The notes: generated from the sequence alone by a model not told the origin. 64,000 nucleotides of DNA from Burkholderiales bacterium (GCA_038215405.1 JBBQQX010000002.1:22094-86093); one strand, 5' to 3'; positions 17,470 through 62,169 are shown, counted from the first letter of the stretch. Translations and numbers: made by a program.

Positions 17470-18810
17470 TTAGACAGTCACCGTCAAATCAACCGTGCCG
17501 TCGACAAGGGTGGCGCGCAGGGCCTGACCTGGCTGGGTTTGCTGCACGCGGCTGATGCCTGCGCCCGCTAGCGTGCTCAGCCAGGCGTAGCCGCGCTGAA
17601 GAACCAGATGCGGGTCGAGCAGGCCCAGCCGCAGCGCCGCGCGTTGCAGACGCTCGTCCTGGCGCTGCAGGCCGCGCTGCGCGGCAGCGGGGAAAACCAG
17701 CGCCAAGCGCTGCAGGGCTTGTTCCCTTTGCTGCACAAAGTGAGTCGAGGCCAATTGCAGCCGCTGCGCGCTGTTGGATAAGCGCAGGCGCTGACCACCG
17801 ACCAACGCTGACGGTCGCCCAAAACGCGATGCCGTCAGGTCAAGCCTTTGGTTTTGCTGATCCAGTCGCCGCGACACGCTGTGCTGCAGGCGCCGCGCCG
17901 CCGCATCAAGCGCACCCAGCCAGACCTGCTGAGGTTGCGCCACCAACTCGGCCGCCGCAGTGGGCGTGGGTGCGCGCAGATCCGCCACGAAATCCGCAAT
18001 GGTGAAGTCGGTCTCATGACCGACGCCGCAGATGACGGGCACCGGGCTGCGGGCCAGCGTCTGCGCCAGCTGCTCGTCATTGAAAGCCCATAGGTCCTCC
18101 ATCGAACCACCGCCACGCACCAGCAAGATGACGTCGATGCACGGCACAGCGGGTCCGCCCTTCTTTGTTATTTTTTTGGCAAAATCAGGCTCTAGCCCAC
18201 GTCCTGATTGCGTGAGTAGATATAATTTTGATAGCGCCTGAATCAGCTCGCCGGGAGCGCTGCTGCCTTGTACCGTGGCCGGGACAATGAACACCGGGAT
18301 GTGCGGCGCGCGCCGTTGCAGCGTCGTCACCACATCGTGCAGCGCAGCGGCACCGAGCGAGGTCACGACGCCAATGCCGCGCGGCAGCAGCGGCAATGGG
18401 CGCTTGCGCTCGGGCGCAAACAGTCCCTGGGCTTCAAGCTTGGCCTTGAGCTGGAGAAACTGCTCAAACAGCGCGCCCTGCCCGGCCCGGCTCATGCTCT
18501 CCACGATCAACTGCAGATCACCACGCGCCTCGTAGACCCCCAGGCGGCCACGCACTTCGACCAGCTCACCGTCGCGCGGCGAGAAGTCCATTGAGGTGGC
18601 GGCGCGGCGAAACATGGCGCAGCGAATCTGCCCGCTCTCATCCTTGAGGGAAAAGTAACAATGTCCGCTCGACGCGCGCGAGAAGCTTGAGAGCTCGCCG
18701 CGCACGACGACCGGATTGAAGCGGGCGTCAAGCGCATCAGCGATGGCGCGGCAGAGTGCGCCAATTTGCCAGATGCGCGGTGCAACTGTGCTGGATTTGG
18801 CCTCAAACAT
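17470..18810 (-). CDS. xseA: Exodeoxyribonuclease VII large subunit
   Basis: OB-fold N-terminus ([24 protein letters not shown]), [18 protein letters not shown] at 18810 (MFEAK...) is preferred over the TTG at 18834. Confidence 0.9.
18178..18232 (-). repeat. Element A copy inside xseA (in frame)
   Basis: Reverse complement: ATTATATCTACTCACGCAATCAGGACGTGGGCTAGAGCCTGATTTTGCC. Its 24-nt tail is identical to the copy at 52383-52440. Encodes ...[15 protein letters not shown]... Confidence 0.75.
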
Positions 18811-19157
18811 GATGGAAAGCCGGCTTGGAGCCAAGGCTTGAAAGAGGAATGCTCCACAGCGTCAGAATTGGTTCGTCGCCCCTTTGAACGCACCCTTGAA
18901 GCCCTGATAAAACGGTGCAAGTTATTGATTTCATTGTATTTTCAGCTGCCTAATTTGTCATCAATCTGTCACAAGCCCCGGCCCGTGCGGCTCGCCGGCA
19001 CGTCGACAGCCAGTTCTGCACAAAGTTATCCACAGTTTATGTGGGCGACTGGCGCATGGCAGGCGCGCGCGCCGTAAGACGCCACTGCCGCGGGCAGTCG
19101 GTGAAATTGAGACCTGCGCCATAATTGCGCGGCCTTTCATCTGCGCGGAGTCCCCAT

Positions 19158-19790
19158 TTGTTTTCAATCATACAAGCCGCAGGCTGGCCGATCTGGCCGC
19201 TGGTCGCCTGCTCCATCCTGGCACTGGCGCTCGTCATTGAGCGCTTTGTCAGCCTCAAGACCGACAAAATCGCACCACCCCAGTTGCTCGAGGAGGTGCT
19301 CAATGTCTCGCGCACAGCCGTGCCGACCCCCGATGTCGTGAACCAACTGGCGAAGAACTCGGCCTTGGGCGAAGTCTTGGCCAGCGGCTTGCGCGCGCTA
19401 AATACCCACCCGCGTTGCAGCGAAGAAGAGCTGCGCTCCACCATGGAAGGCACCGGTCGCCTGGTTGCGCACCGGCTGGAAAAATACCTGACCGCGCTCG
19501 CCACCATTGCCTCGGCGGCGCCGTTGATGGGCCTGTTTGGCACCGTGGTGGGCATGATCGAAATTTTTGGCTCGCAGTCGACGTCCGGCAGCGCCACCGG
19601 GGGCAACCCGGCGCAACTGGCGCATGGCATTTCGATTGCGCTCTACAACACGGCGTTTGGCCTGATCGTGGCGATTCCGTCGCTGATCTTCTGGCGCTAC
19701 TTTCGGGCCCGCGTTGACGAGTACCTGCTGACGCTGGAACTGGCCTCAGAGCGGCTGGCACGCCACCTCAACACGCTGCGCAAGCCATGA
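19158..19790 (+). CDS. exbB: MotA/TolQ/ExbB proton-channel protein
   Basis: FSIIQAAGWPIWPLVACSILALALVIERF... and the TolQ/ExbB C-terminal TM pair. TTG at 19158, with GGAG 8 nt upstream, is preferred over 19125. Confidence 0.85.
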   Translation: MFSIIQAAGWPIWPLVACSILALALVIERFVSLKTDKIAPPQLLEEVLNVSRTAVPTPDVVNQLAKNSALGEVLASGLRALNTHPRCSEEELRSTMEGTGRLVAHRLEKYLTALATIASAAPLMGLFGTVVGMIEIFGSQSTSGSATGGNPAQLAHGISIALYNTAFGLIVAIPSLIFWRYFRARVDEYLLTLELASERLARHLNTLRKP

Positions 19791-59271: not shown

Positions 59272-59286
59272 CCCGGACCGACCACC

Positions 59287-62169
59287 ATGACTCAAAATGC
59301 ACTTTCGCCTTTGGGCGAACTGGAAAACTCGTGCGAGTTTATCGCCCGCCACATTGGCATTGATGCGGCCGACGAAGCCGTGATGCTCAAAGTCGTGGCT
59401 GCTGCATCACGCGACGAACTCATTGATGAGATCGTGCCGCGCTCCATCGCCCGCAGCCAGCCGATGGACATCCCCGCACCCATTTCTGAGGTGGCCGCAC
59501 TGGCCGAACTCAAGGCGATGGCAGCCAAGAACAAGGTGTTTAAGAGCTACATCGGCCAAGGCTATTACGGCACCCACACGCCCGGCGTGATTCTGCGCAA
59601 TGTTCTCGAAAACCCCGCCTGGTACACCGCGTACACGCCCTACCAGGCCGAGATCAGCCAGGGTCGCATGGAGGCGCTGGTCAACTTTCAGACCATGGTG
59701 ATGGACCTGACCGGGATGCCGATGGCCAATGCCTCGATGCTGGACGAAGCCACCGCCGCATCCGAGGCCATGACCATGGCGCTGCGCGCCAGCAAGTCCA
59801 AATCGACCACTTTTTTGGTGGACCGCGAGGTCTTGCCGCAAACGCTGGCCGTGATCCAGACCCGCGCCGAACCGCTGGGCATCGAGGTCAAGCTGTGCAG
59901 CGGCGATGAGGCCTTGAGCCAGGACAGCTTTGCGGTGCTGCTGCAATACCCTGGCGTGAGCGGCCTGGTGCGCGATGACCGCGCCCTGATTGCGGCGGTC
60001 AAAGCCAAAGGCGGCATCGTCATCATGGCGGCCGACCTGCTGGCATTGACCCTGCTTGCCGCCCCCGGCGGACTCGGTGCCGACATCGCCATCGGCAGCA
60101 CGCAGCGCTTTGGCATGCCGATGGGCAACGGCGGCCCGCACGCCGCCTACATGGCGTGCCGGGACGAGCACAAACGCACCATGCCGGGCCGACTGGTCGG
60201 CGTCAGCATCGACGTGCACGGCAACCCGGCTTACCGGTTGGCGCTGCAAACACGGGAGCAGCACATTCGCCGCGAAAAAGCCACCTCCAACATCTGCACC
60301 GCGCAGGTGCTGCCCGCGGTGATCGCCAGCATGTACGCCGTTTACCACGGCCCCGTCGGCTTGAGGCGCATCGCGCAGCGCGTGGCGGCCTTGACGGCGG
60401 TCCTGGCGCAAGGTTTGCTCGCCATGGGCTACCGCAGCGCCAACGCCAGCGCCTTTGACACGCTGACGCTTGACACCGGAGATGCTACAAGTTTAATAGC
60501 TGCTAACGCCCTATCCGCGGGGGCCAACCTGCGATTTGCTTCAAATATTTCCTTAAGTGTGTCGCTGGATGAGACCAGCACCCGCGCGGATGTGCAGGCG
60601 CTCTGGGGCTTCTTTGCCAAGCCCGGCCAGGCGGTGCCGCAGCTCAGCGACTTCGAACCGGGCGCCACCCCCCTGCTGCCCGCTGCCCTGCTGCGCACCA
60701 GCGCCTACCTGACGCACCCGGTGTTCAACAGCCACCACAGTGAAACCGGCATGCTGCGCTACATCCGGCGCCTGTCTGACTTTGACCTGGCGCTGGACCG
60801 CAGCATGATCCCGCTGGGCAGTTGCACCATGAAGCTCAACGCCACCAGCGAGATGATCCCCATCACCTGGCCCGAGTTTGCCGCCATCCACCCGTTTTGC
60901 CCGGCCGAACAGCGCGCGGGCTATGCCGAGCTGGACGAGCAACTGCGCGCCTGGCTGTGCCAGGCCACCGGCTACGCCGGCATCAGCCTGCAACCCAACG
61001 CCGGCAGTCAGGGTGAATACGCCGGCATGATGGCGATTCGTGGTTTTCATGCTGCACGCGGCGAGGGCCACCGCAACATCTGCCTGATCCCCTCAAGCGC
61101 ACATGGCACCAACCCGGCCAGCGCCGCGATGGCGGGTTTCAAGGTGGTGGTCACAAGCTGTGATGCCAATGGCAATGTCGACATGGCTGACTTGAAGGCC
61201 AAGTGCGAGCAGCACAGCGCCAACCTGGGCGCGATGATGATCACCTACCCCAGCACCCACGGCGTGTTTGAGACCAGCGTGAAAGACCTGTGCGCCCTGG
61301 TGCATTCCCATGGCGGGCGCGTGTATGTCGATGGCGCCAACATGAACGCGTTGGTCGGCCTGGCCGCGCCGGGTGAATTTGGTGGCGACGTGAGCCACCT
61401 GAACTTGCACAAAACCTTCTGCATCCCGCACGGCGGCGGCGGCCCCGGTGTCGGGCCTGTGTGTGTGGTGGCTGATCTGGTGCCGTACTTGCCCGGTCAT
61501 GGCGTCGGTGCGGTATCGGCAGCGCCGCTCGGCAACGCTGCGGTCTTGCCCATCAGCTGGATGTACTGCCGCATGATGGGCGCTGTTGGCCTCAAGGCGG
61601 CCACCGAGGTCGCCATCTTGAGCGCCAATTACATCAGCGTGCGGCTCAAAGACCATTACCCCACGCTGTACACCAGCATTTCTTCCGAGGGCAAGCCCGG
61701 CCGCGTGGCGCACGAGTGCATTCTGGATTTGCGCCCCTTGAAAGAGAGCAGCGGCGGTGTCCATGGCGTGACGGCTGAAGACGTGACCAAACGCCTGATG
61801 GACTATGGCTTTCACGCGCCCACGCTGAGCTTTCCGGTGCCCGGCACGCTGATGGTGGAGCCCACCGAGAGCGAAACGCTCGATGAGTTGGACCGCTTCA
61901 TCAACGCCATGATCGCCATCCGCGAAGAGATTACCAAGGTCGAGCAAGGTGTCTGGCCGCAGGGCAATAACCCGCTGAGCCACGCGCCGCATACCGCTGC
62001 ATCACTGCTGGGCGATGCCTGGGACCGACCCTACTCGCGCGAGTTGGCCGCGTTCCCGGTGCCCGGCTTGAAGCGGTCCAAATACTGGGTGCCGGTGGGC
62101 CGCATCGACAACGTCTATGGTGACCGCAATTTATTTTGCAGTTGCGTTCCGGTGGGGGATGGGCACTGA
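59287..62169 (+). CDS. gcvP: Glycine dehydrogenase (decarboxylating), P protein
   Basis: 960 aa. [16 protein letters not shown]; PLP lysine region [18 protein letters not shown]. Confidence 0.95.
60481..60539 (+). repeat. Element A copy inside gcvP (sense, in frame)
   Basis: GATGCTACAAGTTTAATAGCTGCTAACGCCCTATCCGCGGGGGCCAACCTGCGATTTGC. Closest relative of the intergenic copy at 45531. It is a locally AT-rich patch with rare codons. Confidence 0.65.

Follow-up and report, generated by a model that had tools for sequence, protein, structure and literature searches.

Dispersed repeats that are read in frame inside bacterial genes have so far been taken as tolerated insertions. Among them, the Rickettsia palindromic elements (RPEs) are 100-150-bp palindromes that add 30-50 residues to their host proteins and are regarded as decaying insertions. 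Repetitive extragenic palindromic (REP) sequences, which are 20-40-bp palindromes of overwhelmingly extragenic location, are also known inside some open reading frames (ORFs; PMC3733652). Here we describe Element A, a repeat of about 65 nt that occurs in 12 copies in a 64-kb window of a Burkholderiales bacterium genome (GCA_038215405.1, JBBQQX010000002.1:22094-86093; "the window" denotes this whole stretch of 64,000 nt). The data indicate that Element A both inserts into genes and overwrites conserved coding segments at constant length, while the silent-site pattern suggests that its DNA motif is under a constraint of its own inside essential genes. Its best interpretation is as a new family of REP-like repeats with dual coding. 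At gathering thresholds, Rfam holds no family for Element A and matched only two glycine riboswitch aptamers, a search with two intergenic copies at E<=10 returned noise only, and no published description emerged from full-text literature searches directed at the element. The family is thus apparently undescribed, and it appears set apart from RPEs, REPs and the Beta-proteobacterial repeat element (BRE) by their descriptions.

With RPEs (Ogata et al. 2000, 2002; cited in PMC3733652), Element A shares the in-frame position of dispersed repeats in housekeeping genes, the use of stop-free frames only and, in WaaA, WaaC and XseA, the addition of a peptide to an otherwise normal protein. It differs in its length of 65 bp, in the lack of a consensus hairpin in its Rhodoferax type, in the replacement of codons at constant length by five of eight genic copies, and in the motif-dependent constraint on its silent sites; moreover, its host is a free-living, GC-rich betaproteobacterium, and the hosts are unrelated (Comamonadaceae as opposed to Alphaproteobacteria). 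The REP/REPIN-RAYT sequences (Di Nocera et al. 2013, PMC3733652) are likewise short, high-copy and long-retained, overlap gene ends and supply stop codons, and the likeness may extend to the GTAG(C) at one end of Element A, on the antisense strand, and to the GC-rich 7-bp central stem of a related subfamily. Element A is, however, longer and modular, lies within genes in 8 of 12 cases and has a broken hairpin in the Rhodoferax type. For the copies that replace codons in place, the best analogue is the group of DNA uptake sequences (USS/DUS; Findlay & Redfield 2009, PMC2817400), which are mostly genic, leave protein length unchanged, use preferred frames and less constrained positions, and are retained among relatives. 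Uptake cores nevertheless span 9-12 nt, or about 30 nt when their flanks are included, occur at very high density, favour preferred codons and constrain the gene little, whereas Element A occupies 65 nt with about 53 bits at a density near one copy per 5 kb, forces rare AT-ending codons and also occurs as a discrete insertion. Miniature inverted-repeat transposable elements (Correia/NEMIS, Nezha, ERIC, RUP) resemble it as small non-autonomous repeats within or overlapping ORFs and on plasmids, but they carry terminal inverted repeats and target-site duplications, whereas Element A has short inverted repeats that are internal only and 4 bp long (GCTA-N9-TAGC and GGGC-N4-GCCC). Identity with BRE, a repeat of 75-91 bp and 69% GC that often forms tandem arrays (Hot et al. 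2011, PMC3110155), is ruled out by length, GC content and tandem habit.

The Element A motif in coding DNA

The 12 window copies, located with nhmmer, belong to one sequence family of fixed length, are AT-rich in a window of 58-67% GC and are always solitary. They can be aligned without gaps, and a wider set of 65 copies keeps an 84-column register with zero indels. Leave-one-out profiles recover every copy, with E-values of 1e-11 to 1e-6 and a weakest value of 5e-3 for the copy in gcvT, and a profile built from the four intergenic copies only still detects seven of the eight copies inside genes (E<=1e-3). The consensus, TGCTAC.AAAT.AATAGCTGCT..CGCA.T.T..ACG.GGGCTAGA.GCC.ATTT, corresponds to a motif of about 53 bits over about 60 nt in a non-redundant set of 18 sites. 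Its high-information blocks (GCTA, ATAGCTGCT, CGCA, ACG.GGGCTA, CC and AWTT) are laid out as GCTA-N9-TAGCTGCT-N2-CGCA-N6-ACG-N-GGGCTA...CC.AWTT and, read by eye from the information profile, lie roughly one helical turn apart. As a discrete unit, the element is found in intergenic, genic and plasmid settings.

Eight copies lie in ORFs that they leave unbroken, as the earlier note had recognised from the sequence, and Pfam confirms the hosts, with domains that flank or span all eight sites. Four copies are sense to their genes, namely those in xseA (gene 17470-18834, minus strand; copy 18173..18238, minus), lpxK (20754-21782, plus; 21590..21654, plus), gcvT (57663-58808, plus; 58497..58559, plus, encoding AAKILAQLAGGTGAATRKRVG) and gcvP (59287-62169, plus; 60481..60546, plus). 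The other four lie on the plus strand, antisense to genes on the minus strand: a type II asparaginase gene (29887-30909; copy 30240..30304), waaA (33416-34807; 33995..34057, encoding VLASFWLLARVDTSHTATISVA), waaC (34804-35880; 35325..35388, encoding TSMSFGLLAPVPIAQAAIDIEA) and an EamA transporter gene (53547-54458; 53761..53826, encoding GSEQKVLLALEQPAQAAIICIA). Given this even division, the orientation of the element is independent of transcription, a point against its being read as RNA.

All four antisense copies are read in a single frame and their peptides are related, just as the earlier note had stated (pattern LLA.V....A.AAI), and the four sense copies occupy three different frames. A stop scan of the 65 copies accounts for the shared antisense frame: one sense and only one antisense frame are mostly stop-free, and the other frames meet a TAG, arising from ATAGC or CTAGA, in 44-61 of the 65 copies. 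The sense copies that use such closed frames lack that TAG (ATATC in xseA, CTAC in lpxK). The frame regularity is therefore a filter and not a property of the insertion process.

The similarity between copies resides in the DNA rather than in the peptides. The AT-rich patches of rare codons that had been noticed in the GC3-rich host genes were confirmed: third positions are A or T in 62-70% of the codons in the element columns of gcvP and gcvT, as compared with 21-25% in the rest of these genes and with 16-20% in the same columns of element-less orthologs, which thereby equal the remainder of the gene. These rare AT-ending codons persist in five lineages. When the peptide of each host was held fixed and its codons were redrawn from the genes' own usage in 5000 trials, the observed copies stood at z 3.1-6.8, and their scores were reached in at most 1 of 5000 recodings. 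In addition, when orthologs with similar peptides but no element are scored in that register, they fall 40-130 bits below the copies. The similarity between copies is hence due to codon choice and not to protein sequence. The earlier note had set its RPE analogy against two possible findings, namely ancestral segments without length difference and a nucleotide similarity that would vanish once protein constraint is considered. The first was found in five genes, whereas the second was not, with nucleotide similarity remaining highly significant when the protein is held fixed.

Comparison of orthologous copies points to selection on these codons. Specifically, third codon positions within the ortholog groups are conserved at 70% in high-information columns and at 38% in low-information columns, and the difference has the same sign in 8 of 8 groups. 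At residues that are identical between bearers of the element, codon identity amounts to 74-77% inside the element as opposed to 58-59% outside, and in gcvT the element is 92% identical to that of one relative (L002) and 87% to that of another (L010), as compared with 78% and 71% for the rest of the gene. These sequence comparisons indicate purifying selection or a persistent drive that would act on the motif as DNA, in addition to the protein code. Because the copies are kept at orthologous sites and the conservation of their silent positions follows the information content of the motif, they are, so far as such comparisons can tell, not inert relics or merely tolerated junk. Concerted evolution was considered as the cause of retention and rejected: orthologous copies are much more alike than paralogous ones, and homogenisation within the genome is therefore not the cause.

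The closest relatives of the window belong to Rhodoferax, with GcvT 82-85% identical to that of metagenome-assembled genomes and XseA 84% identical to that of R. ferrireducens. The copies in gcvT and gcvP are found at the same sites in four relatives (L002, L003, L010 and L016), those in xseA and lpxK are kept in R. ferrireducens, Rhodoferax sp. PAMC 29310 and a JGI contig, the asparaginase site is kept in the latter two, and the EamA site in two relatives. The waaA site is present in more than 10 contigs at 54-69% protein identity, and copies at the waaA and waaC sites occur in many metagenome contigs at 54-73%. No copy was found in about 126 kb of Limnohabitans, Hydrogenophaga, Variovorax and other Burkholderiales loci (L004-L009). 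Plasmids also carry the element: on a 31.9-kb plasmid of R. antarcticus, interspersed with IS1634 and toxin-antitoxin genes, six copies pass E<1e-6 and about ten pass E<=0.02, and a single copy on a Comamonas plasmid adjoins IS1071.

Copies in place, copies in linkers and the broken hairpin

The earlier note had taken the genic copies as extra peptides in the manner of RPEs, which applies to waaA, waaC and xseA (15-25 residues) but not to gcvT, gcvP, the EamA gene, lpxK and the asparaginase gene (0-3 residues). In these five genes, Element A lies over about 21 ancestral codons. In gcvP, it coincides with the conserved segment GD-AT..IAA.A...GANLR, whose length is identical in Variovorax, Limnohabitans, Hydrogenophaga and Rubrivivax and agrees within one residue in E. 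coli and Synechocystis. The gcvT orthologs with and without the element are within one residue of each other in length, and the conserved GA.KILAQL...RKRVG is retained while its codons become ATA, CTA, GCA, CGA and GGA. The EamA gene differs from element-less orthologs in 20 codons at identical length and, like gcvP and gcvT, retains its conserved residues, and lpxK, where the copy lies over the conserved PDHYxF...T.KD motif, has two more residues than the Aquifex gene. In the asparaginase, a segment had been put at about 20 residues longer than in E. coli AnsB, with a possible older copy of the element at 30128. The element site is three residues longer than in solved homologs, and the extra length lies instead in the stretch around 30128, which has no match to the element model. 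This unrelated, GC-rich stretch (30100-30160, minus strand) contributes about 10 extra residues that are specific to this genome and are absent from two Rhodoferax orthologs and from solved asparaginases.

In gcvP, the element-less Variovorax segment already scores higher against the motif than any other position of the gene (rank 1 of 5760), and the homologous segment falls in the top 1-4% of the gene in three other lineages. Motif scores are bimodal, with +12 to +53 for bearers and -18 to -88 for non-bearers, which suggests a step and not a gradual drift. As a separate observation, the gcvT gene of a Rhodoferax metagenome-assembled genome (L001, 4429-5571) is the closest found to that of the window, at 85% protein identity, and yet lacks the element, which more distant relatives keep. 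Without any difference in length, the 63-nt patch is 65% identical between the two genes, whose remaining sequence is 80% identical. On this sequence pattern, patch-wise loss or allelic replacement is suggested.

The remaining three genes carry the element as additional sequence. Element-less waaA orthologs are 17-25 residues shorter exactly at the site, where the insert lies in the linker after the N-terminal domain and makes the protein 13 residues longer than a solved WaaA; in a rough tree, the insert falls within one large clade that contains at least four nested lineages without it. Element-less waaC orthologs are 15-20 residues shorter, and the 3' end of the element overlaps the conserved FGL. 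No target-site duplication is evident between filled and empty waaA and waaC sites, a comparison that is limited by divergence. For xseA, the extra length was measured against E. coli, as opposed to the element-less orthologs found for waaA and waaC, and the extra stretch reported before the RGGGS motif proved real, the protein being about 23 residues longer there. The 5' third of the xseA element lies over the end of an ancestral helix, and its remainder together with a Lys-rich tail makes up these extra residues; the length of the tail that follows the element differs between Rhodoferax relatives. In an AlphaFold2 model of low overall quality (mean predicted local distance difference test score, pLDDT, of 57), residues 201-221 are coil with pLDDT<50, a hint that the extra residues may form a loop.

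The palindromic character that the comparison with RPEs had implied belongs to a related subfamily only. This subfamily, from other taxa, has a perfect central stem, AGCGCTT-N7-AAGCGCT, whereas a G35-G49 mismatch, present in 44 of the 65 copies, interrupts it in the Rhodoferax type. Copies of the Rhodoferax type show no consensus hairpin: RNAalifold applied to 31 copies on both strands returned no consensus structure, with energies of 0 to -0.3. The family therefore resembles a REP-like element that, in its Rhodoferax branch, may no longer depend on a hairpin.

Proposed origin and competing explanations

The available data are compatible with a model, which we consider somewhat probable, in which Element A, a dispersed REP-like repeat of Rhodoferax and its allies in the Comamonadaceae, is read as DNA, is under selection and gave rise to its in-place copies by templated replacement. 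Specifically, the motif would be read whichever way transcription runs, most likely by a protein that recognises its sequence, and selection would preserve this reading. In-place copies would stem from short-patch templated replacement from another copy, through ectopic conversion or a template switch, at targets with a pre-existing likeness to the motif, while the linker copies in waaA, waaC and xseA would have arisen by insertion. Flexible linkers gain 15-25 residues from the element, and structured segments keep their length to within 0-3 residues. A more specific version describes a 65-bp DNA "address label" that templated patch replacement would write onto coding DNA and that selection would keep for a dedicated DNA-reading protein; it is possible, though we put it forward tentatively. 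Several points weigh against the model. The reader protein and the benefit of the motif are putative, and templated replacement is inferred; a near-identical pair of donor and recipient was not found, the best pair in the window being 71% identical. The length comparisons for lpxK and the asparaginase rely on distant solved structures as the only element-less comparators. The classes of high- and low-information columns were drawn from a set that includes the window copies, and ortholog pairs share ancestry, so that pair counts overstate their independence. Retention could partly reflect slow decay instead of selection, yet silent sites elsewhere in the same genes are far more diverged. Finally, the density of the element in sampled Rhodoferax DNA, about 1 per 3-7 kb, is an extrapolation from about 200 kb.

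The main rival for the in-place copies is stepwise evolution in situ, in which a functional DNA signal arises by point substitutions under selection or biased transmission drive, as in DNA uptake sequences, and nothing is copied. The five genes without length change and the retention of sites across species fit this scenario, as do the ancestral gcvP segment that was the best match in its gene and the fall of leave-one-out bits from intergenic to linker to in-place copies. We know of no evidence for competence in these bacteria, which counts against an uptake signal, and about 53 bits over 60 nt go far beyond known uptake or orientation signals and would be hard to reach stepwise. The proportion of copies in ORFs (8 of 12) is near the 65% of H. 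influenzae uptake sequences (PMC2817400), but the almost complete lack of intermediates between the two modes of motif scores, the discrete presence or absence of 50-75 nt at waaA and waaC, which looks like insertion, and the EamA patch, which alters most of 20 residues at once, all make a point-by-point origin rather doubtful. Another rival is a purely selfish, RPE-like mobile palindromic repeat that would insert at random, yield harmless in-frame peptides and leave neutral relics. Such a repeat would produce the clean length polymorphisms at waaA and waaC, the extra residues of XseA, the plasmid copies near insertion sequence (IS) elements, the use of stop-free frames only and a related subfamily with a central hairpin, and REPs inside ORFs have been reported in several species (PMC3733652). 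It would not produce five of eight genic copies that add 0-3 residues over ancestral, partly conserved segments, silent positions conserved by motif information, rare AT-ending codons maintained in five lineages, zero indels in 65 copies or a Rhodoferax type without consensus fold. As such, this explanation, which we regard as unlikely overall, is already contradicted for the in-place copies, given that it explains three genes but neither the other five nor the silent-site pattern.

Two further explanations carry far less weight. A structured RNA on mRNAs, be it a small RNA, a cis-regulatory hairpin or an attenuator, could be read into three copies with weak matches to a hairpin plus T-run in the sense orientation of the element, and into sense intergenic copies that lie exactly between co-directional genes. 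With no RNAalifold consensus on either strand, no Rfam match even at E<=10, half of the genic copies antisense to the mRNA and terminator-like counts not above shuffles, it is highly improbable. An artefact, either through chance likeness of Ala/Leu-rich peptide segments or through wrongly extended ORFs, would draw on the weak gcvT copy (leave-one-out E 5e-3) and on some intrinsic similarity of the ancestral gcvP segment; its likelihood is close to nil, with Pfam domains flanking or spanning each site, and it is already refuted by the recoded peptides, which (almost) never reach the observed score, and by the scores of element-less orthologs, which are 40-130 bits lower.

Intergenic copies, neighbouring repeats and implications

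The four intergenic copies are found at gene boundaries or in spacers. The copy at 9181..9241 (minus strand; leave-one-out E 9.6e-11 with nhmmer) fills the spacer between an RNase PH gene (9227-9958, minus) and a Ham1-family gene (8567-9187, minus), overlapping one gene at its stop and the other at its start. The copy at 38993..39058 (plus) lies at the junction of an ada/alkA-like and an ogt-like gene and covers the stop of the former (37430-39007) and the start of the latter (39053-39595). The copy at 45531..45595 (plus) follows directly after the stop of an ORF at 45070-45528, and that at 52381..52446 (plus) lies between a cheB/cheR-PAS gene (49473-52103, minus) and a thioesterase-like gene ending at 52457. 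A number of candidate functions were considered for the copies and rejected. A replication-polar orientation was set aside for too few independent sites, with 10 copies on the plus and 2 on the minus strand and a uniformly negative GC skew. No promoter-like site for sigma-70 was present inside any copy, and terminator-like sites occurred in 3 of 10 copies of the scanned stretch, with totals not above shuffles. A candidate DnaA box, TTATCCACG, appears in the majority consensus, but its columns are low-information across copies, and it was dropped.

Other repeats share the window with Element A. At 52699-52810, a different, strongly palindromic element of 112 nt has 34-nt arms that are 85% complementary and a DNA fold of -49.5 kcal/mol (z -7.4). 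It lies in frame in the thioesterase-like ORF (52457-53395, minus; 4HBT_2 at residues 164-308), encodes about 38 residues (GLGFWGQSPNSPSQMAGPSGATPGVAAKLASDPNTQGP) and comes closer than Element A to a classical palindromic insertion of the RPE kind. One of its arms, GGGGTCAGACGCCAATTTCGC, agrees by eye with the 3' part of the Element A consensus in 16 of 21 bases, a relationship that is uncertain in view of an nhmmer E-value of only 8. In the spacer beside the start of the EamA gene (54464-54709), three tandem GC-rich units of 81 nt, 93-95% identical, fit BRE (PMC3110155) by its description in length, GC content and tandem habit. The gap of about 540 nt between exbD and lpxK (20215-20754) holds nested GC-rich inverted repeats (20352-20405/20650-20703 and 20404-20440/20608-20644) and a mechanical ORF without a Pfam domain. 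Since the same gap measures about 520 nt in R. ferrireducens and 5 nt in two other relatives, it looks like an inserted palindromic element. An AT-rich inverted pair of 44 nt, 75% complementary and 13 kb apart (29315-29358 and 42343-42386; ATGTGTTCTATAAATTTTCTTAAATGAAAATAATCGGCGTCTAA and its reverse), may represent another dispersed repeat family. Upstream of gcvT, an ordinary tandem glycine riboswitch (57331-57593) has two aptamers of 48.7 and 47.6 bits, and its position implies that the TTG-started gcvT ORF (57609) begins too far upstream, the true start lying near 57663.

Compared with RPEs and REPs, what is new in Element A is the constant-length overwriting of conserved coding segments and the selection on a motif within essential genes. 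The findings thereby bear on the old question of whether REP-like elements are junk, parasites or host signals. In practical terms, Element A patches distort analyses of codon usage and dN/dS, and the copies can serve as lineage markers for Rhodoferax-like Comamonadaceae. If the tentative reading of Element A as an address label were true, repeats would have a new route of colonisation, by overwriting and not by inserting, and a REP-like element would be functional at each of its copies. The essential genes of Rhodoferax would then contain a second code, independent of the protein and dictating about 20 codons per site.

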